Positions 3,145-19,039 of a DNA stretch of 64,000 nt are shown here, piece after piece. The stretch spans positions 221,332 to 285,331 of the forward strand of contig JBAZBR010000001.1 of NCBI GenBank assembly GCA_041671325.1. Direction: 5' to 3'. The translations under genes were made by a program, and so were the position numbers. Each line of letters starts with the position of its first letter. Position 1 is the stretch's first letter. The notes beneath the pieces are model-generated. The model was not told the DNA's origin. It worked only from the letters and a program-made list of their open reading frames with translations, and ran no database searches. Origin of the DNA: Patescibacteria group bacterium (GTDB lineage Bacteria; Patescibacteriota; Patescibacteriia; PEXW01).

Positions 3145-5469
3145 ATGGGTAATTTGAGTAAAAGCCTTATTAGAATAATAGGGATTTTTTCAGGTATTTT
3201 AATTATTTTTGGCACCTCGGTCACCCCGATGGCTAGCGCCAAAAAGGTTTCAATGGCCTTGGCAGACAGCCAACAATCGGCCGTGTCCACCGACCTTGGC
3301 ATCTATGGCGGGGATAATTGGGATATTGCGGTTGACGGCGACCACGTCTATACCATTGCCAACGGAGTGCCTAACGGTTTCTTCTATTCGACTGACGCGG
3401 CTGCTACCTGGCAACGCCCTACCGGAACATATGATTTTGGTTCCGGCACCGCGGTTGAAGTGGATCCGACAACCCACGCAGTTTACATAGCACTCGATGG
3501 GCTATTTAAAAGTTCCGATTACGGCGTGACTTTGACGAAAATTGCAGACAGTGTCGGCAATCCATTACTCTTCGCCCAAGGAAGACTATTTGCAACACAT
3601 AATGATACCATCTACGTCAGTAGCGATAATGGAGCAACCTTTGCGACCGTAGCGATATCCGGTGAAAATATCATGAGCTATGCTGCATCAAAAACAGCCG
3701 GTACATTCTACGCCGTAACCCGAAACTCCACAACAAGTGCGGCGCATCTGTATACCAGTACTGATTACGGCGTAACCTGGACAGCTATTACTGTCGACGC
3801 CAGCGTGACTTCGTATACCGATGTTAACGCTGATCCATATGATGCAAGCATCCTGACCTTAAGCGGCGATAATGCCTTGTGGTTATCACTTAATGCCGGT
3901 ACATCCTGGACAAAGATAGGAGTAACACCCGCCCGTTCCTGCGGTAACTTCTCGGTCTGGACCTCCACCCGCTGGTACGCCTGTGCTGGCTACTCCACAG
4001 ACAACGGAACTACTTGGACTAATATGGACACACATACGTATGTCATGCGCGGTCCAGGCAAGATTATTGCCATCAATACCGCTGATGAGGATATCATTTA
4101 CGGCGACTGCATGAGTGGCATTTGTAAGAGTACTGATGGCGGTCTAACCTGGCATAATAGCCTGAAAGGCATTACCGGCGTTAACGTCTTGGCGATAAGT
4201 TATACTACTGACAAAACTACAGCTTGGGTCTCATCAAGCAATGGCTTGGCGAAAACCTCAAATTTCAATTCAACCACGCCGACCTGGACCTGGCCGATCT
4301 TGCCTTGTGACCCCAGCCCGAGTGCTCGTTGCGATTCGAGTGGCATTGGCGAATCAGTCTGGGTAAAACCGAATGATCCGACTATTGTCATGGCCGGATC
4401 AATTGGGGGCTGGGTATATCGGAGTACAGATTCTGGAACCACTTGGACAGCCCAAATCCCTACAGTAGTAAATCAAGCTAAGTTTAAAACCGATACTTGG
4501 AACAATTTGCGACCTAAGCATTTCTTGAGTGACCCAACTGACGCTAATATTCTTTATCTGGCGATGTACGACCCGATTGACAATAACGGCGCCGTTCTGA
4601 AAAGTACCGATGCTGGGATTACTTGGACGGATATGGGCATTGCCGATGACGCACCGGCTACGGTTCTGTCTATGACGAAAACCGGAGTGCTTTATGCCGG
4701 GACTGGTTATGGCAAATCAACAACGACTACTAAGGGTATTTATAAGTTCGACGGGGCGAGCTGGACCAAGCTGGTTGGAATCGAAACTAGCCTGAATATC
4801 ATTAGCATTCTTGTCGATCCGGAGGTTGAGACCACAGTCTACGCCACAGCCGCAAATGATTTAGCCCCGTTACAATTGGATGGGTTCTACAAGTCTATTG
4901 ATAGCGGTGCAACCTGGACAAAGATCGTCCCGACTGGCTATACGGACTTTGGTGCTATTACCGTGCAAAAGAACACTTCACCGAACACCCTTTACATGTC
5001 GGCTAGTGATAGCGCTAACCATGGCATCTTGCTCAAATCAAGTGATCAAGGCGCCACTTGGGGCGTGCTTTATCAAGGTTTAAAATCAGAGTCTTATGGC
5101 GCGGTTGTGTTTGATGGTTTAGTTGTCGGCTCAAAACACGGTTTGTTTGGGCTTAAATCAAAAGGCACATTCCTATCCTTAAATGGCGCAAAAGTTAAAG
5201 CTAAAGTTCCGGTGAAGCTCTCTGCTACCTTGAAGGATAAAGCCACTAAAAAAATCTTAAGCGGAAAATTAGTCAAACTTTACTACAAGGAGGGCAATAA
5301 ATGGAAACTTAAGGCAACCGCAGTTTCGAATAAAAAAGGTAAAGTAACTTTCACGGTTAAGACTCATATCACCAGGCAATACCATATGGCTTGGGCTCCT
5401 GGGAAAATCGATAAGAATGAGTATGCTGGCACGGATTCAAGCAATGTGACGATAACCATAAAAAAATAG
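3145..5469 (+). CDS. Secreted BNR/Asp-box repeat protein (sialidase/sortilin-like beta-propeller) with a C-terminal Ig-like domain
   Basis: N-terminal signal/TM segment. At least 10 S-x-D-x-G-x-T-W motifs, e.g. STDYGVTWT, STDNGTTWT, STDGGLTWH, STDSGTTWT, STDAGITWT, SIDSGATWT. Lys-rich Ig-like tail. Confidence 0.8.
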   Translation: MGNLSKSLIRIIGIFSGILIIFGTSVTPMASAKKVSMALADSQQSAVSTDLGIYGGDNWDIAVDGDHVYTIANGVPNGFFYSTDAAATWQRPTGTYDFGSGTAVEVDPTTHAVYIALDGLFKSSDYGVTLTKIADSVGNPLLFAQGRLFATHNDTIYVSSDNGATFATVAISGENIMSYAASKTAGTFYAVTRNSTTSAAHLYTSTDYGVTWTAITVDASVTSYTDVNADPYDASILTLSGDNALWLSLNAGTSWTKIGVTPARSCGNFSVWTSTRWYACAGYSTDNGTTWTNMDTHTYVMRGPGKIIAINTADEDIIYGDCMSGICKSTDGGLTWHNSLKGITGVNVLAISYTTDKTTAWVSSSNGLAKTSNFNSTTPTWTWPILPCDPSPSARCDSSGIGESVWVKPNDPTIVMAGSIGGWVYRSTDSGTTWTAQIPTVVNQAKFKTDTWNNLRPKHFLSDPTDANILYLAMYDPIDNNGAVLKSTDAGITWTDMGIADDAPATVLSMTKTGVLYAGTGYGKSTTTTKGIYKFDGASWTKLVGIETSLNIISILVDPEVETTVYATAANDLAPLQLDGFYKSIDSGATWTKIVPTGYTDFGAITVQKNTSPNTLYMSASDSANHGILLKSSDQGATWGVLYQGLKSESYGAVVFDGLVVGSKHGLFGLKSKGTFLSLNGAKVKAKVPVKLSATLKDKATKKILSGKLVKLYYKEGNKWKLKATAVSNKKGKVTFTVKTHITRQYHMAWAPGKIDKNEYAGTDSSNVTITIKK

Positions 5470-10192: not shown

Positions 10193-10603
10193 ATGTCTGA
10201 AGAAAAAAAGAACGTAGAAGTTCCAGAAAAGTTCAAAACTTTAGTGGAACAAATCGAAAAGTTGTCAGTCGTGGACTTGGCTGAATTAGTCAAAGTTCTG
10301 GAAGACAAGTTTGGTGTTTCTGCTGCCGCCCCAGTCATGATGGGCGCTATGCCAGTTGCCGGCGCTGCAGCCGCAGACGCTGGTGAAGAAAAGTCCACTT
10401 TCAATGTGGAATTGACCTCAGCTGGTGGCAGTAAGATTGCCGTTATTAAAGTCTTGCGCGAAATTACCGGCAAAGGCTTGAAAGATGCCAAAGACTTGGC
10501 TGATGCCGCGCCAAAAGTCGTGAAAGAAAATGCCGCCAAGGAAGAAGCAGAGGAATTGAAGAAAAAACTGGAAGAAGCCGGCGCGACTGTGACTTTGAAG
10601 TAA
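10193..10603 (+). CDS. rplL: 50S ribosomal protein L7/L12
   Basis: Ala-rich flexible hinge and a C-terminal domain ending [10 protein letters not shown]; N-terminus [30 protein letters not shown]. Confidence 0.95.
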
Positions 10604-10623
10604 TTAATTTTATTCAAGTTAAA

Positions 10624-10659
10624 TAAGGCTTACCTGAATTAAGGCAGGCCTTATTTTTA
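10624..10659 (+). terminator. Rho-independent terminator after rplL
   Basis: TAAGG..CCTG / CAGGCCTTA stem followed by TTTTTAA. Confidence 0.5.
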
Positions 10660-10660
10660 A

Positions 10661-10862
10661 GGTTGTGGATCCTGTTCCATCTCGCTACCGCTCGATGAAC
10701 AGGGCGAAGGTCAACATGTGAGGTTCCTCGTATGACTCGGGACGAAATACAAGGAAGCCCTTCGTGAGTATACTCAGGGGAAAGTAAAGTCAGTCTTATA
10801 AAAAGGTCCTTCGGCTACGCCTCAGGACGAAAAGTCAAGAAAACTTGACTTTTCGGTTTTTA
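10661..10862 (+). ncRNA. Candidate structured small RNA of unknown class: a GC-rich ~200-nt noncoding island ending in its own intrinsic terminator
   Basis: No ORF in any frame. GC content is far above the flanks. Several local hairpins, e.g. CCTGTTC...GAACAGG. A strong terminator GAAAAGTCAAG-aaaa-CTTGACTTTTC+GGTTTTT lies at 10828-10862. Confidence 0.3.
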
Positions 10863-11300
10863 TTCGGTTATAATAGTAATTACTATGTTGGTATTCCATG
10901 AACAGCCACACCAAAAAATTCGGGTTTTTGCCGACTTTTCCCTTGGTCAAAACAACCTTAAGCGAGTTATCCCCAAGGCCTTTTTTTGGGCTGGCCGGAG
11001 GTATGATATCCAGTCAGTTAACCTGGTTTACCAGCGCAGGCGAGGGGACAAGTTTGACTGGTGTTTTGCAGTTTCTGATTTGGCCAATGCTTTTGTCCTG
11101 GCTTTTAACCCTGAAAGCCTGGAATGGACTTTAGATGAAGTCCAAGGTGGATAAAAAAACAAGGACCCGCTCCCTCACAAAGCAGATCCTCTACCGCCCT
11201 CTTTGATGGCCTTTGGGGTATCCCCCCTCTTCTGTAAGGCCTAAGAAGGCAAGTTCAAAAGATCTCAATTCCATTATAGTTAGAGATTTTTACAAGTCAA

Positions 11301-11408
11301 ACCCCGCACCACTTTCTAAATAAATATTGATTTTAATAAATCTAAGATATTATTTCTGTGAATTTCTTAAAAATTAAAAAGTAATTTTCATAGAAAGTGG
11401 TGCGGGGT
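11301..11408. repeat. Perfect 18-bp inverted repeat (ACCCCGCACCACTTTCTA / TAGAAAGTGGTGCGGGGT) around a 72-bp AT-rich spacer; MITE-like or long hairpin
   Basis: Exact reverse-complement arms read directly at 11301-11318 and 11391-11408. Confidence 0.5.
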
Positions 11409-11439
11409 CAACCCCATAAAGTTATGCTCTTATAAATAA

Positions 11440-11470
11440 AAAATCGGCCTGGTTTAATAAGCCGATTTAG
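11440..11470 (-). terminator. Terminator for the minus-strand gene 11508-11891
   Basis: AAATCGGC...GCCGATTT stem, with a T-run on the minus strand. Confidence 0.5.
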
Positions 11471-11507
11471 ATGGTAGATTGCTTATTTGACGCAATTCAC
11501 TAAGGTC

Positions 11508-11891
11508 TTATTCTGGCAACACTTGTCCCTTCGTGCATAATAATTCGTTTTTCCTTAAGGGAGACATTTGGTAAACGATCAGGCTTAATATGGTTCCCAT
11601 GAACAAGCAGGTGATGCCGACTGGCCAATGATTCCAGATGCCTATTTCGTGGCCTCCGTACAAAAAGCAGTGGACAGCGGCCAAAATCAGACTGGTTATA
11701 AAAACGACTCCGGTTCCAGCCTTGCGGCTTGTCTCACTGTTTCTGATTATGACAGAAGTGATTAGTGCTGTAATCAGGATCAGGCCGGCGAAAAGCCGAA
11801 GTTCCTGCCAATAACCACTCAGCCAGCCGCTGGCCGTAATCACGCTTATGCCAACAATCAAGATCACCAGGAACTTTTGCATTTTGGTCAT
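11508..11891 (-). CDS. Hypothetical small integral membrane protein (4 TM helices)
   Basis: 127-aa ORF consisting largely of hydrophobic helices. Confidence 0.55.
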   Translation of the reverse strand: MTKMQKFLVILIVGISVITASGWLSGYWQELRLFAGLILITALITSVIIRNSETSRKAGTGVVFITSLILAAVHCFLYGGHEIGIWNHWPVGITCLFMGTILSLIVYQMSPLRKNELLCTKGQVLPE

Positions 11892-12036
11892 TATTACCCT
11901 CCAGGGTTAGGCCATGAAAAGTGAACTATTTTGAAATAATCTTAGTAAATTGCCATTGGCTTTGTCAATAAAATTATACAACGCATTGTTCTCCATTTTG
12001 ACCCCGCCAATAGGTTAGAGTCAGGCTATCGGCGGG

Positions 12037-12101
12037 ACGGAGCTCCGCAAAAGCTTTATGATAGGCAAGTGAAATTCCAGCGGAGCTCCGCATGAATTCA
12101 T
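12037..12101. promoter_or_regulatory. Candidate operator upstream of dinB: CGGAGCTCCG at 12038-12047, GCGGAGCTCCGC at 12080-12091, then ATGAATTCAT at 12092-12101
   Basis: Perfect palindromes read directly from the sequence, ending 14 bp before the dinB ATG. Confidence 0.35.
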
Positions 12102-12114
12102 AGATAAATAATAT

Positions 12115-13326
12115 ATGCAAAGAATCGTTTTACACTTTGACATGAATTCGTACTTCGCCTCAGTCGAACAACAGGCGAACCCGTTTTTGCGCGGCCAGCC
12201 AGTGGGCGTCTGTTCAACCATGTCCAGGCGCGGTTGCATAATTGCTTCTTCCAAAGAAGCCAAGGCTTTTGGCGTCAAAACTGGCTGTCGGGTGGCTGAA
12301 GCGCAAATTTTGTGTCCGCAAATAAAATTAGTGGAAGTGGATCCGCCCAAGTACCGGACTACTACCCAGAAAATTTTTGGCTTGTGCAAAGATTATACCA
12401 GCGACATTGAATTATATTCAATTGATGAAGGCTTTTTGGATTTGACTGGACTGGTAAAATCTTTTCCAGAAGCGATTGGCATTGGCCAGCTTATAAAAGC
12501 CAGGATCAAGAATGAAGTCGGGGAGTGGCTGAATAATTCCATGGGTATTGCTTACACCCGCTGGCTGGCAAAATTTGGCAGCGATATTGCGCCCAAAGGC
12601 GGGTTGGTGGTGATTACGCCGGCCAATCGTTTAACATACCTGAAAGGCCGCGAACTGGAAGACGCCTGGGGCATTGCCGGGGCTTTGGCTAGCCGCCTGC
12701 AGGTGCTGGGCATCCAAACTTTAGACGAGTTGGCCAGGTATTCGCCTATTAACCTTTTGGAAATTTTTGGCATAAAAGGTTATGAACTTTGGGCCAATGT
12801 TAATGGCATTGAATTGGCTGGCTTGGCAGAAAAGCAGTTGCCAAAATCCATTGGCCACAGCCACGTTTTGCGCAAAAGGAATCATGATGAAAAGTTCCAT
12901 AAGGCCGTGATCATGCGGCTGGCGGAAAAAACCGGCCGGAGACTGCGGGAAATTGGCTTGGAAGGCCATGGCTTGTATGCCTTTATGAAGCTGGAGGGCT
13001 TAGGGGATTTTGGCGCCAGTAAAAAAGTCTTTAGGCCAATTATCACTACCCAAAGGATTTATAGCCAGACTTTGGAAATCCTGGAGCTGCACCTTAAAAA
13101 GGGCGTACCAACTTTTTTCGCCTTAGGCCTCTTCAATCTCCAACCCAAGTCAAACCAATTAAGCCTTTTTGAAAAGCCTAAATCCGAAGCTTTGGTCAGA
13201 GCATTAGACAGAATCAATAATAAATACGGCGAGGAGGCGATTGTCCAGGGTGATTTGGTGCGTTTAGGTTTTCAACATGTGCCAGACCGGATTGGTTTTC
13301 GGAAGACCGTAGGCTTAGATGACTAA
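12115..13326 (+). CDS. dinB: DNA polymerase IV (Y-family translesion polymerase)
   Basis: N-terminal HFDMNSYFASVEQ, YSIDEGFLD and helix-hairpin-helix and little-finger regions. ~400 aa. Confidence 0.9.
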   Translation: MQRIVLHFDMNSYFASVEQQANPFLRGQPVGVCSTMSRRGCIIASSKEAKAFGVKTGCRVAEAQILCPQIKLVEVDPPKYRTTTQKIFGLCKDYTSDIELYSIDEGFLDLTGLVKSFPEAIGIGQLIKARIKNEVGEWLNNSMGIAYTRWLAKFGSDIAPKGGLVVITPANRLTYLKGRELEDAWGIAGALASRLQVLGIQTLDELARYSPINLLEIFGIKGYELWANVNGIELAGLAEKQLPKSIGHSHVLRKRNHDEKFHKAVIMRLAEKTGRRLREIGLEGHGLYAFMKLEGLGDFGASKKVFRPIITTQRIYSQTLEILELHLKKGVPTFFALGLFNLQPKSNQLSLFEKPKSEALVRALDRINNKYGEEAIVQGDLVRLGFQHVPDRIGFRKTVGLDD

Positions 13327-16204: not shown

Positions 16205-17052
16205 AGGAAACAATTTTCCTGTTGATCATTGCCGAATCCACCAAATTGATAATTGTAAAAAAGCAAGGCAATAAACTTTTTAGCAAGACAAAAACTGCAG
16301 ACTTGTTTAAAAATGCAGATTCTTTGACTTTAATCAATCAAGTTTTTAAACTACAGAAAAATCAAAAATTAAACGGAATATTTTTAAGTATAGAAAAGCA
16401 AAGCTTTTCTTCAACTCGTGCCTTGGTGAGCATAGCCAATGCCTTGGCTTACGCATATAATTGTAAAGCCGTGGAGTTAAAAGTTTCTCTACCAAGCTCC
16501 CAAATTTCAAAACTTTTTACTCTTGGCAAAAATGAATTGTCCAAAACCATTACGCAATTTATTAAACCCACATACCTTAATTTGCCTAATATTACTAAAC
16601 CCAAATTAAAAATTAACGAATTTCATATTTGTTCGGGGGCATTAGTTTATGATCAAGTAAATAAAAAGTTTCTATTTATCAGACGAAAAGATACCAAAAA
16701 AATTGGTTTACCTAAAGGCCATCAAGAAAAGAATGAGAATTTAGGCTTTACCGCTAAAAGAGAAGCTGGCGAGGAAACTGGGTATTCTGATTTAAAATTA
16801 ATCGGTAAATTGAAAAGTATAAAATATAAATTTACGGTAAAGGGCGAGTTACATGAAAAAACCGAACACCAATTTTTATTATTATTGAATTCTTCTAAGA
16901 CAAAAAATAGGTTAAGCACCGGTGAAGTAAAAAATTTGGATAACCTGTGGCTTACGCCACAACAAGCTTTATTAGATCCGAATTTGTATCCAAATTTACA
17001 GGATACAATAAAAAAGGCTATTTTTATCTTGAAAAAACGAAATTTATTTTAA
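16201..17052 (+). CDS. Fusion protein: TsaB/YeaZ-like N-terminal domain plus C-terminal Nudix hydrolase domain
   Basis: The N-terminus aligns to TsaB (IFLLIIAEST...; EKQSFSSTRALVSIANALAYAY against GPGSFTGLRIGI..A.GLA). The C-terminus carries the Nudix box GHQEKNENLGFTAKREAGEETGY. Confidence 0.55.
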   Translation: MKETIFLLIIAESTKLIIVKKQGNKLFSKTKTADLFKNADSLTLINQVFKLQKNQKLNGIFLSIEKQSFSSTRALVSIANALAYAYNCKAVELKVSLPSSQISKLFTLGKNELSKTITQFIKPTYLNLPNITKPKLKINEFHICSGALVYDQVNKKFLFIRRKDTKKIGLPKGHQEKNENLGFTAKREAGEETGYSDLKLIGKLKSIKYKFTVKGELHEKTEHQFLLLLNSSKTKNRLSTGEVKNLDNLWLTPQQALLDPNLYPNLQDTIKKAIFILKKRNLF

Positions 17053-17882
17053 GTATTTACTGAAGCAAGATTTTTGTTGAAAAAATTAAAATTGAAGCGT
17101 TTATTTAATTTTAAACCAATAGCTTTAGAACCCACGATTTCTTCAGGTTTTTTTACTCCTATCCAGGAAGATGTAACTTGGTATCGTAAAGCCAAGCCTT
17201 TTTTGCCAAGCCAAGAATAAACATCTTCTGTTTTTGCGTTTAGAAATTCACCAATAAATGCAATCCCAGATTCCTTTAGTCTTAAGGCGCTAGATTGGCC
17301 TAAGCCTGGCAAAAACCTTATGGGTATTCGGTTTAAGGTCTGAGCATCGTTTTTATCATAAAATTGAAAGCCAGGTTGGCGTAAGGTGAGATTAGCAAGT
17401 TTGGCTAAAGTTGGACTGCTGCCAAAACCAATATTAACTTTGCATTCCAGCTCCTGCCAACAAGCATTTTGGATTTTTAAGAAAATTATTGCTCTTTCAA
17501 TAGATGTAGAGTAGGGAATAGTAAGCAGGATTTCATTATTCTTTTCCATAACAAACTCACCCCATTTTTTTGAAATTTTAATAAAAGCCCTGGAAAAACC
17601 TTTTAAAAAACCGGATTGAATGGGTCTAATTACCAATCGTGGAGTAATTTGAAAAGCTTTTTTTAAACTCATCCCTTTTTTTATGCCAAAGCTTGCAGCA
17701 ATAACATTGCAGTCAACAATAGTCAATTCTGAATTTATATTTTCGATAATTGCCAAAGGGACATTTCTAAATTGCGGATTGAGTGCCTCCTCCACGCTCG
17801 CGGCAAAATGGTTTATAGAAATATATAAATAATGCCTTGGGCTAAGATTTTCGAATGGTTGTTTTGAAGTTTTGTTATACAT
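17049..17882 (-). CDS. Y-family DNA polymerase paralog lacking catalytic carboxylates (ImuB-like), downstream of lexA
   Basis: YISINHFAASVEE aligns to DinB DMDxFFAxVE with both Asp replaced. YSTSIERAI replaces the S(I/L)DE motif. GIGSSPTLAKLA is the HhH region. Only 277 aa. Confidence 0.6.
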   Translation of the reverse strand: MYNKTSKQPFENLSPRHYLYISINHFAASVEEALNPQFRNVPLAIIENINSELTIVDCNVIAASFGIKKGMSLKKAFQITPRLVIRPIQSGFLKGFSRAFIKISKKWGEFVMEKNNEILLTIPYSTSIERAIIFLKIQNACWQELECKVNIGFGSSPTLAKLANLTLRQPGFQFYDKNDAQTLNRIPIRFLPGLGQSSALRLKESGIAFIGEFLNAKTEDVYSWLGKKGLALRYQVTSSWIGVKKPEEIVGSKAIGLKLNKRFNFNFFNKNLASVNT

Positions 17883-18104
17883 AGATAAACTAATATATTT
17901 ATATTCTGTCCTACTAGGTTAGCGTTAAATTTGCTAAGGAATGGTTCTACCAAAATAATTCATTAGATTTAGACGCTCCACCCCGCAAAAAAATTGAGAG
18001 AAGGTATGCCTGCGGGGCGTCACTTAACAAAAGAGCTAAAAAATAAGTGGGTATTTTTTGTAAGTTGAGTGCCGAATTAAAACCGAAAATAAAAATTAAA
18101 AAAA

Positions 18105-18722
18105 TTAATACTTGCGAATTAGGCCAATAACCTTTCCTTGGATAGTAACGTTTTTAACGTCAATAGGCTGATAATTTGGATTTGCCGGTTGAAGCCTAAT
18201 AAAATTTTTCTTACGGAAAAACTTTTTTAAAGTAGCATTCCCGTCATCCAAGAGCGCCACAACCATATCGCCATCTTTGGCTAATTGGGTTTTTTCCACC
18301 ACCACCAAATCACCATCATTTACTAAACTTTCAATCATTGAATCGCCTCTGACTTTCAAGATGTAAGCATTTTTCTTGCCGACTAAATTTTGCGGCACTG
18401 GGATCATGTCCTGCTTATCCTCAAAGGCTTCAATTGGCGAGCCAGCGGCAATAGTCCCAACCAGCGGCAATAAACTTGAAGCAAATTCCAAATCCGGTTT
18501 AAGATCTGGCTCGATAATTTCAATACCGCGCGTATTATTCTTATCTCTTTTTATAAACCCGGATTTTTCCAAAAAAGTCAGGTGTTCATGGACCGTGGCT
18601 AAGGAGGATAAGTCAAAAGCCTTGGCAATTTCCGTTAAAGTCGGGGCATAACCATGCTCTTGCATGTATTTTTTTAGAAAATCCAGAATAGCCCTTTTTT
18701 GTTTGTGTAATATTGGCGCCAT
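18105..18722 (-). CDS. lexA: LexA repressor (SOS regulator, S24 peptidase)
   Basis: N-terminal wHTH (LTEIAKAFDLSSLATVHEHLTFLEKSGFIKR), cleavage-site AAG, and catalytic VRGDSM...K of the S24 domain. Confidence 0.9.
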   Translation of the reverse strand: MAPILHKQKRAILDFLKKYMQEHGYAPTLTEIAKAFDLSSLATVHEHLTFLEKSGFIKRDKNNTRGIEIIEPDLKPDLEFASSLLPLVGTIAAGSPIEAFEDKQDMIPVPQNLVGKKNAYILKVRGDSMIESLVNDGDLVVVEKTQLAKDGDMVVALLDDGNATLKKFFRKKNFIRLQPANPNYQPIDVKNVTIQGKVIGLIRKY

Positions 18723-19039
18723 ATTTGCTATGAATTACGAATAAATACGAATTTTGCTAATTAAGGTAGAAATAGTATAACCGAAATAAAACCGAAAATC
18801 AATTAAAAATACAATAATTTTGAATGTTTTATGAGGTTTATTTATGAAACGTGATTTTTTAACAAAAAGTCCTGTGGATAACTTTTGAAGTTAAAATAAG
18901 CTTAAAATCCGCATTTTAGATTAAACGGTATTGGTGATTATCTGGTTTATGTGGATAAACCGCCTTGACAGCAGGTTTTTTGCACCTTATGCTGTAATTC
19001 CTAAAAAGAGAAAACCAAAAGAGTATTGAACTAGCCAGT

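Follow-up and report, generated by a model that had tools for sequence, protein, structure and literature searches.

A hairpin-rich island downstream of rplL in a Patescibacteria genome: a candidate intrinsic terminator merged with a predicted LexA-controlled promoter

Results and discussion

The hairpin-rich island at positions 10661 to 10862 of the window (the whole 64,000-nucleotide stretch of Patescibacteria DNA analysed here) is read here, with reasonable though far from complete confidence, not as a gene, but as an intrinsic terminator placed as an insulator ahead of a LexA-repressed promoter and accompanied by duplicated accessory hairpins. According to this model, the terminator-like hairpin hp2 would form by pairing of an upstream arm with the -35 box and the first operator TTCG of the downstream promoter, and the T-rich operator spacer would serve as its U-tract. 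Most likely, hp2 would act as an intrinsic terminator and halt upstream transcripts precisely at the operator; at this locus these would be read-through from rplJL, a highly expressed operon. Halting transcription at that point would leave a mutagenic cassette under LexA control, and would also prevent bound repressor from being swept off by polymerases arriving from upstream. As for the accessory hairpins, termed hp1, the likeliest role is that the copy nearest to the promoter may stack on hp2 and thereby stabilise or strengthen the 3' end.

Genomic setting and absence of known RNA families

The island is preceded by two features:

10193-10603, + strand: rplL (ribosomal protein L7/L12), the gene upstream of the island (136-aa ORF)
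10621-10660, + strand: rplL terminator, a hairpin with 18-nt arms (10621-10656) and a T-run (inverted repeat)

The Pfam families Ribosomal_L12_N and Ribosomal_L12 match the identical rplL product in locus L001, and the RplL protein of the window shares 62-87% identity with those of Kerfeldbacteria, Moranbacteria and Uhrbacteria MAGs. The rplL terminator folds with -16.4 kcal/mol on the + strand and -15.8 kcal/mol on the - strand (RNAfold) and, lying between an A-run and a T-run, appears bidirectional. rpoB was not found directly after rplL in any close relative inspected.

A preliminary description, made from the letters of the window, had presented the island as a GC-rich non-coding element with multiple local hairpins directly after rplL, and these points held. 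The island adjoins rplL and its terminator hairpin, all of its six frames are stopped (no open stretch on the + strand exceeds 26 codons), and several local hairpins are present. Its GC content of 47.0% exceeds that of its flanks (26% in 10604-10660 and 23% in 10863-10884), equals that of neighbouring genes (46.7% in rplL) and is moderately above the window mean of 41%. A pseudogene was ruled out on the basis of stop codons in every frame and the lack of any conserved frame.

The same description had suggested a reduced housekeeping RNA, pointing to partial likenesses to RNase P P4 and SRP domain IV, and this suggestion did not survive the comparison with known families. Rfam returned no gathering-score match in the 64-kb window and, at E<=10, nothing inside 10661-10862 on either strand; over 10400-11600, the only hits at E<=10 were plant-miRNA-like noise on an unrelated inverted repeat at 11301-11408. 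ARAGORN identified no tRNA or tmRNA. What speaks for a housekeeping RNA (RNase P RNA, SRP RNA, 6S or tmRNA) are short string likenesses picked out by eye, GGGGAAAGU and AAGGAAGC, both of which lie in repeated arm/linker sequence. Furthermore, the island was absent after rplL from all 80 related Patescibacteria rplL loci (GTDB genomes); blastn and nhmmer searches over 81 rplL loci recovered it only in the near-identical locus L001. Such an identity retains virtually no probability in our judgement and, as far as covariance models can test it, is already refuted.

A predicted SOS promoter and its 89-aa gene

At the 3' end of the island and further along the window, the following features were identified:

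10845-10874, + strand: sigma-70-type promoter of the 89-aa gene, with -35 TTGACT (10845-10850), an 18-nt spacer and -10 TATAAT (10869-10874) (consensus scan)
10852-10867, + strand: predicted LexA (SOS) box TTCGGTTTTTATTCGG, a direct repeat with an 11-bp period (motif, PWM)
10885-11154, + strand: conserved 89-aa gene, remotely DUF6504-like, all-beta (SOS promoter upstream, homologues)
17049-17882, - strand: ImuB-like Y-family polymerase gene, next after lexA (IMS domain, 4.5e-20)
18072-18087, - strand: third SOS box, directly 5' of the ImuB-like gene (motif, PWM)
18105-18722, - strand: lexA, predicted repressor of the box (Pfam Peptidase_S24, 1.7e-33; LexA_DNA_bind, 5e-17)
18781-18796, - strand: box of the lexA promoter, TTGATT-TTCGGTTTTATTTCGG-TTATACT (sequence)

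The stretch 10863-11300, previously called low-coding, turned out to contain the conserved 89-aa gene, whose ORF begins 11 bases past the -10 element. Five copies were present in the first set of related loci and 12 more came from metagenomes; overall, the protein falls into about 50 homologue clusters, and every cluster with a named organism belongs to Patescibacteria. A dinB gene (IMS and IMS_C domains) almost always follows, frequently overlapping the 89-aa gene, which normally opens the cassette that the two share. The 89-aa product matched DUF6504 (PF20114) with 15.1 bits and E = 0.029, below the gathering threshold of 24.2 bits, and weak matches to this family were obtained for 19 of 28 relatives (best E = 0.0029). 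Taken together, these similarities would make it at most a remote relative of DUF6504. The PDB provided no sequence match to the 89-aa protein and no Foldseek match at E<=0.001, and a literature search for DUF6504 found no paper mentioning it.

The promoter of the 89-aa gene matches the sigma-70 consensus at 11 of 12 positions, and hp2 contains its -35 box within the 3' arm. The sequence TTGACyTTCGGyTwTTmTTCGGkTATAmT is conserved 5' of the 89-aa gene in every lineage examined, and the DNA further upstream is unrelated between lineages. Within this block, the predicted operator has the form TTCGG-N6-TTCGG; the hp2 stem takes in its first TTCG, and the terminator U-tract coincides with its T-rich spacer. 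The exact motif occurs three times in the 64-kb window, at the promoter of the 89-aa gene, at the lexA promoter and at the ImuB-like gene. With a PWM built from 24 boxes, these three sites scored 33.2, 27.2 and 21.1 bits, compared with 13.9 bits for the next best site. The box lies between the -35 and -10 elements in every 89-aa/dinB cassette promoter examined and, in locus L110, the 89-aa gene lies next to a divergently oriented lexA that carries a box of its own. Because the motif marks lexA, the ImuB-like gene and the dinB cassette, and because of the arrangement in L110, we read the box as a LexA operator and the promoter as an SOS promoter. The comparative case for TTCGG-N6-TTCGG as the predicted LexA operator of this lineage is strong, and we infer that LexA binds the box.

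In Alphaproteobacteria, the LexA box is a GTTC-N7-GTTC direct repeat (PMC8565304), and the recognition of direct repeats by LexA has arisen several times (PMC7739468). The promoters compared here resemble the alphaproteobacterial ones in the overlap of the operator with the core promoter, in the 11-bp period and in the presence of sites at lexA and translesion-polymerase genes. The window box differs in its half-site (TTCGG) and T-rich N6 spacer, and in that one half-site and the -35 box double as an arm of a terminator-like hairpin. A literature search for the TTCGG-N6-TTCGG motif found nothing relevant. The SOS network of Patescibacteria was reportedly described by Sanchez-Osuna et al. in 2017, and the motif of the window may be the one published there. 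If the assignment is right, lexA, the ImuB-like gene and the 89-aa protein with dinB, each marked by TTCGG-N6-TTCGG, would outline the SOS regulon of an uncultured, Kerfeldbacteria-like lineage.

The hairpin hp2 combines terminator anatomy with the -35 box

The last structured element of the island is the following:

10828-10862, + strand: hp2, with a 12-bp stem (10828-10839 / 10844-10855), an AAAA loop, then G and UUUUUAU (RNAalifold, covariation across 8 lineages)

The stem arms of hp2, CGAAAAGTCAAG and CTTGACTTTTCG, form an inverted repeat without mismatches over 12 bp (10828-10855), after which comes GTTTTTATT. The hairpin has the anatomy of an intrinsic terminator, with a stem of -14.8 to -16.4 kcal/mol followed by GUUUUUAUU; the - strand has no U-run. 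The island had initially been credited with a terminator of its own at 10828-10862. The hairpin and U-tract anatomy was confirmed, and the word "own" has to be withdrawn, as the same nucleotides are also the -35 box and the predicted LexA operator of the next gene.

A perfect hp2 stem of 10-17 bp is found in all nine lineages that carry the module described below. The -35 box occurs in six variants (TTGACT, TTGACC, TTGCGT, TTTACT, TTGTGT and TTGCAT), each mirrored by a complementary 5' arm of hp2. When RNAalifold was applied to eight promoter-proximal modules, it recovered both hp1 and hp2 unaided, with compensatory changes in 9 of 16 pairs; both hairpins covary across relatives. An uninterrupted T5 directly after the stem is present in seven of nine module-bearing promoters as against four of 16 module-less ones (Fisher p = 0.017, uncorrected for phylogeny). 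In addition, an ordinary terminator stands just 5' of the -35 box in most of the module-less loci whose upstream gene is oriented towards the promoter. A U.G wobble pair in hp2 of L082 fits the + strand only; by our own count, about three wobble pairs overall favour the + strand and about three the - strand, which does not settle the strand.

Perfect hp2 stems can also be maintained, in the absence of selection, by template-switching during replication (quasipalindrome correction), which could produce the compensatory pattern as well. Non-consensus -35 boxes were found in four of the nine promoters with the hairpin and in three of the 16 without it, and this excess fits template-switch correction, since mutations would be copied between the arms. 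As a clean natural case of a stem that co-evolves with a -35 box, hp2 is useful for telling selection on RNA structure apart from palindrome-correcting mutation.

Like typical intrinsic terminators, hp2 has a perfect stem of 10-17 bp, a short loop and a U-run, and stands at the end of an upstream transcription unit. It departs from them in the moderate GC content of its stem (5 of 12 pairs), in that its arm and U-tract are common to the next promoter and operator, and in that a conserved second hairpin directly precedes it without a linker. Judging from this anatomy, we infer that termination takes place at hp2, and a role of hp2 as terminator and insulator is plausible. Both parts, a LexA promoter and an intrinsic terminator, are of known kinds; the novelty would be their fusion, together with an accessory hairpin that has not been described. 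For annotation, it implies that a terminator-like hairpin after a CPR ribosomal-protein operon may be a promoter, an operator and a terminator packed into 30 bp.

The upstream part of the island consists of four diverged modules

This upstream part is made of four diverged copies of one module, in which an hp1 hairpin is followed by a (C/G)GAAR..AAG arm:

10671-10715, + strand: module 1, hairpin A (CCTGTTC..GAACAGG, 10671-10703) and orphan arm GCGAAGGTCAAC (10704-10715) (fold -12.6 kcal/mol)
10722-10754, + strand: module 2, hairpin C (GGTTCC-TC-G..C-TC-GGGAC, 10722-10743) and orphan arm GAAATACAAGG (model R1 match)
10758-10791, + strand: module 3, hairpin D (CCCT-TC-G..C-TC-AGGG, 10758-10779) and orphan arm GGAAAGTAAAGTC (model R1 match)
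10805-10828, + strand: module 4, hairpin B (GGTCC-T-TC-GGC TAC GCC-TC-A-GGAC) (model R1 match)

In each hp1, a GC-rich outer stem leads into a symmetric internal loop (TC/TC), beyond which come one to three inner pairs and a variable apex. The covariance model R1 matched module 2 at 10720-10747 (34.4 bits), module 3 at 10755-10783 (14.7 bits) and module 4 at 10803-10832 (37.1 bits); modules 2 and 4 form a direct repeat. Hairpin B abuts hp2 without a linker, and C10828 is common to both. The block of module 1 is 91% identical in locus L094, where hairpin B is identical (it is near-identical in L095) and where hairpin D is the promoter-proximal hairpin (model R1, 23.3 bits).

Of the module arms, only the last one (10828-10839) has a partner, namely the -35 box together with the operator's first TTCG, and this pairing constitutes hp2. 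The other three are orphans, complementary to -35 variants that are functional in other lineages. The arm after hairpin A is of the TTGACC type (complementary to a TTGACC-type -35 box plus TTCG), and the one after hairpin C is of the TTGTAT type, near the TTGTGT of L095. The arm after hairpin D, of the TTTACT type, corresponds to the real promoter of L094 and matches its functional stem. The hairpins A, C, D and B are tandem duplicates of a unit of hairpin plus arm, in which the arms are decayed copies of the 5' arm of hp2, and the distal modules are probably debris of repeated duplication and unequal recombination.

For hp1, 87.5% of the alignment cells were paired, compared with 27-55% when the partners were slid, and five pairs showed double changes. 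Changes in its YTCR...YTCR loop are coupled in the manner of base pairs (T..A with C..G, G..C with A..T). These coupled changes, together with the low PWM scores, indicate that hp1 is a hairpin and not a LexA box. The YTCR-N5-7-YTCR loops do resemble the box, and the upstream hairpins might then serve as auxiliary LexA operators tightening repression, most clearly hairpin B, in which a perfect half-site (TTCGGCT) is followed 11 bp further on by CTCAGGA and whose score of 2.8 bits exceeds the 99.9th percentile of the window. None of the other hairpins reaches even -10 bits, the repeat spacing is uneven (9, 10, 11, 13 and 19 nt), and the coupled changes are typical of base pairs rather than of equivalent half-sites; we rejected the classification of hp1 as LexA boxes and regard auxiliary operators as a far-fetched possibility.

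Several other classifications were considered and dropped. Module 3 is not a decayed promoter copy, as comparison with L094 identified it as another hp1-type hairpin. A hammerhead-like arrangement (stem plus GAAA) lacks the CUGANGA core, and its GAAA belongs to the hp2 stem. The GGA motifs sit outside loops, in disagreement with a CsrA/Rsm-type sponge. Finally, the arms GTCAAG...CTTGAC do not have the RYYYAAC...GTTRRRY form of an integron attC site, for which the element is also too short.

In the 64-kb window, model R1 with filters off detected no hp1 beyond the array other than one 22-bit match inside the enolase gene, and in 99 related loci (about 450 kb) its matches away from the 89-aa gene were all weak. 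As no convincing copies were found elsewhere, hp1 is not a dispersed repeat of the REP type. The hairpins do share with REP/BIME and MITE-like repeats their imperfect palindromes with a mid-stem mismatch, their clustering at gene ends, a variable copy number, and presence or absence that differs between relatives. They differ in that they are not dispersed, being found only 5' of one gene (64 kb plus about 450 kb), and no transposase was seen.

The conserved TC/TC loop of hp1 goes beyond what a plain terminator role would need, and on the opposite strand it reads as tandem G.A.

RNA recognition commonly makes use of tandem G.A between flanking C-G pairs, and the - strand might be the functional one; a protein would then recognise its tandem sheared G.A, whether in an RNA (antisense or divergent) or in single-stranded DNA exposed upon damage. 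Compared with shuffled sequences, the island folds with z = -4.9 on the - strand and z = -2.4 on the + strand; the hairpins, except for hairpin C, are 0.8-3 kcal/mol more stable on the - strand, and two A.C mismatches of the + strand become G.U pairs on it. Nevertheless, no promoter-like site was present on the - strand near 10860-10950, on that strand a U-tract is missing behind the hairpins of most copies, three wobble pairs favour the + strand, and the resulting RNA would be antisense to rplL, all of which makes a functional - strand very unlikely.

Distribution and turnover of the modules among relatives

One to four modules precede the SOS promoter in nine of about 25 lineages:

One module: L065, L082, L088, L092, L109
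Two modules: L095
Three modules: L106
Four modules: the window, L094
No module: about 16 other lineages

The module accompanies the downstream promoter irrespective of which gene lies upstream; rplL, fpg, PMT_2, SPOUT, what we take to be a ppdK-like gene, and a reverse transcriptase in divergent orientation were all encountered there. On the tree of the 89-aa protein, modules appear in deep and shallow branches in a patchy pattern, and all four members of the clade of the window have them. L094 is a close relative of the window (98% identity of the 89-aa protein, 91% of the gene DNA). Nonetheless, the order of its hairpins is A, B, C, D as against A, C, D, B in the window, its hp2 and -35 pair differ from those of the window, and its island does not follow rplL. 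Similarly, L088 and L093 are 83% identical and have the same flanking genes, and are distinguished by a clean 55-nt insertion/deletion of the module.

This turnover bears on the suggestion that the island encodes a lineage-specific small RNA. The element is indeed lineage-specific, structured and non-coding, with covarying hairpins, but its reading as a self-contained sRNA gene is not supported. Like many bacterial sRNAs, including those derived from 3'-UTRs, it is about 200 nt long, rich in hairpins and ends in an intrinsic terminator. An independent + strand sRNA (about 10661-10862), or a stable RNA processed out of the 3'-UTR of rplJL read-through transcripts and ending at hp2, might bind a protein or a target through its repeated single-stranded CGAAAGUMAAG linkers or its hairpins; its four covarying hairpins and terminator and its repeated purine-rich linkers would agree with this, and the lack of an Rfam match would make it new. 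By contrast, a consensus scan detected no promoter-like site on the + strand between 10600 and 10845, the unit is not conserved after rplL in the 80 relatives, and both the copy number (0-4) and the order shift between near relatives. Moreover, the element is tied to the downstream promoter and not to any one of its varying upstream genes. An sRNA of either origin is, on this evidence, decidedly improbable.

The same observations could be accounted for at the level of DNA, the hairpins being quasipalindromes and tandem duplications produced by template-switching or unequal recombination, or a small non-autonomous mobile element transporting or targeting the promoter, with no function as RNA. 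The patchy spread over the protein tree, the 55-nt presence/absence difference between L088 and L093, the re-ordered array of L094, the orphan arms that match -35 variants of other lineages, the commoner non-consensus -35 boxes of hairpin-bearing promoters, and the fact that the strands fold equally well are all consistent with such a by-product. It is less easily reconciled with a module architecture that is the same in deep and shallow branches, with the association of the module with a U-run spacer, and with the specific internal loop that hp1 holds while its stem and apex vary; dispersal, as known from REP/MITE families, was also not seen, either in the 64-kb window or in the 450 kb from related loci. 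We consider a purely DNA-level origin unlikely, yet a serious contender.

The preferred reading, a terminator that insulates the promoter, has to accommodate two further observations. In L095 the upstream gene is divergent, as is the only called upstream gene of L094, and both loci have modules despite the lack of any obvious read-through. In L093 the interval from fpg to the promoter is free of terminators, which indicates that insulation is not obligatory.

A more ambitious interpretation is that the two-hairpin module is a dedicated, previously undescribed cis-regulatory device of SOS cassettes in Patescibacteria, in which hp1, with its invariant UC/UC loop, would be stacked on a terminator sequestering the -35 box together with one half of the LexA operator. 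It could be a conditional terminator under protein control, letting upstream transcription bypass LexA, or a structure read in single-stranded DNA during damage. We deem such a device quite unlikely; if hp1 and hp2 do prove to be more than an insulator, they would represent a structured regulatory element of a new sort, linked to mutagenic polymerases in organisms whose genomes are very small.

The ~800 nt that separate the 89-aa gene from dinB

In the window, the 89-aa gene and dinB are separated by a stretch of ~800 nt (11155–11960) that is missing in the related locus L082, where the 89-aa gene is directly followed by the dinB upstream region. The stretch looks like an insertion. It contains the following features:

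11161–11300, minus strand: small-RNA candidate, comprising a promoter-like site, a GC-rich segment and a terminator hairpin
11301–11408: long inverted repeat whose 25-nt arms (ACCCCGCACCACTTTCT...) are 88% complementary and enclose a 58-nt AT-rich spacer
11508–11891, minus strand: 127-aa membrane ORF with a weak holin-like Pfam match (E = 0.004)

The small-RNA candidate opens with a promoter-like TTGACT-16-TATAAT element (11300–11273; 11/12 match to the consensus), followed by ~100 nt of GC-rich sequence and, at its 3′ end, a 13-bp terminator hairpin (11191–11161) with a U7 tract. Its predicted fold has an energy of -45 kcal/mol (z = -2.7). A search against Rfam returned no match, and no homologue was found among 110 related loci. 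The minus strand of 11161–11300 is a stronger small-RNA candidate than the island, the hairpin array located at 10661–10862. The adjoining inverted repeat produced only sub-threshold, plant-miRNA-like Rfam matches, which we regard as noise arising from the long hairpin.

The 89-aa protein

The product of the 89-aa gene (10885–11154) is predicted by AlphaFold2 to adopt a confident all-beta fold of eight strands (pLDDT 90.8). A Foldseek search of the PDB gave nothing at E ≤ 0.001, and the similarity to DUF6504 is exclusively sub-threshold. The gene was found in Patescibacteria only, with a predicted LexA box upstream and dinB almost always adjoining, and its product is a candidate for an accessory role in translesion synthesis.

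Comparison with related loci

Across the aligned region (10590–11000), the window and the near-identical Logan contig L001 differ at two positions only: the G-run that ends hairpin D of the island, which reads GGGG in the window (10777–10780) and carries one extra G in L001 (GGGGG, 3585–3589), and a single base right where the alignment stops. Either a homopolymer assembly error or genuine slippage accounts for the discrepancy in the G-run. In L082 (730–829) and L095 (1410–1500), ~100 nt of additional sequence containing inverted repeats (GCTAGCAAGTTAG...CTGCTAGCTTGC) separates the SOS promoter from the start codon and forms a long structured 5′ leader, which the window lacks. The covariance model of hp1, the module hairpin with the TC/TC loop, gave weak matches upstream of rplJ in the distant relatives L007 (1854–1882) and L008 (1803–1831) (~20 bits, E ~0.03); these are possibly chance matches or part of the L10 leader.

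Neither rpoB nor rpoC was found after rplL in the window (10193–13326) or in the close relatives inspected (loci L002–L081), and the window contains no ORF of rpoB size, the largest being 993 aa. In this clade, the classical rplKAJL-rpoBC linkage is apparently disrupted.

A possible operator at dinB and predicted operators at lexA

Immediately upstream of dinB (start at 12115), the palindrome CGGAGCTCCGCA occurs twice (12038–12049 and 12081–12092), spaced by 43 bp. Since dinB has no TTCGG box, the predicted LexA operator, in the window, the palindrome pair may serve as an operator for a different regulator. The window also contains:

18105–18722, minus strand: lexA; next comes a short (277-aa) ImuB-like gene with an IMS domain only (pair within 17049–18800)
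18072–18087, minus strand: second SOS box, in the 20-nt gap past the lexA stop codon

The position of this box implies that the lexA/ImuB-like pair has two predicted operators, one 5′ of each gene.
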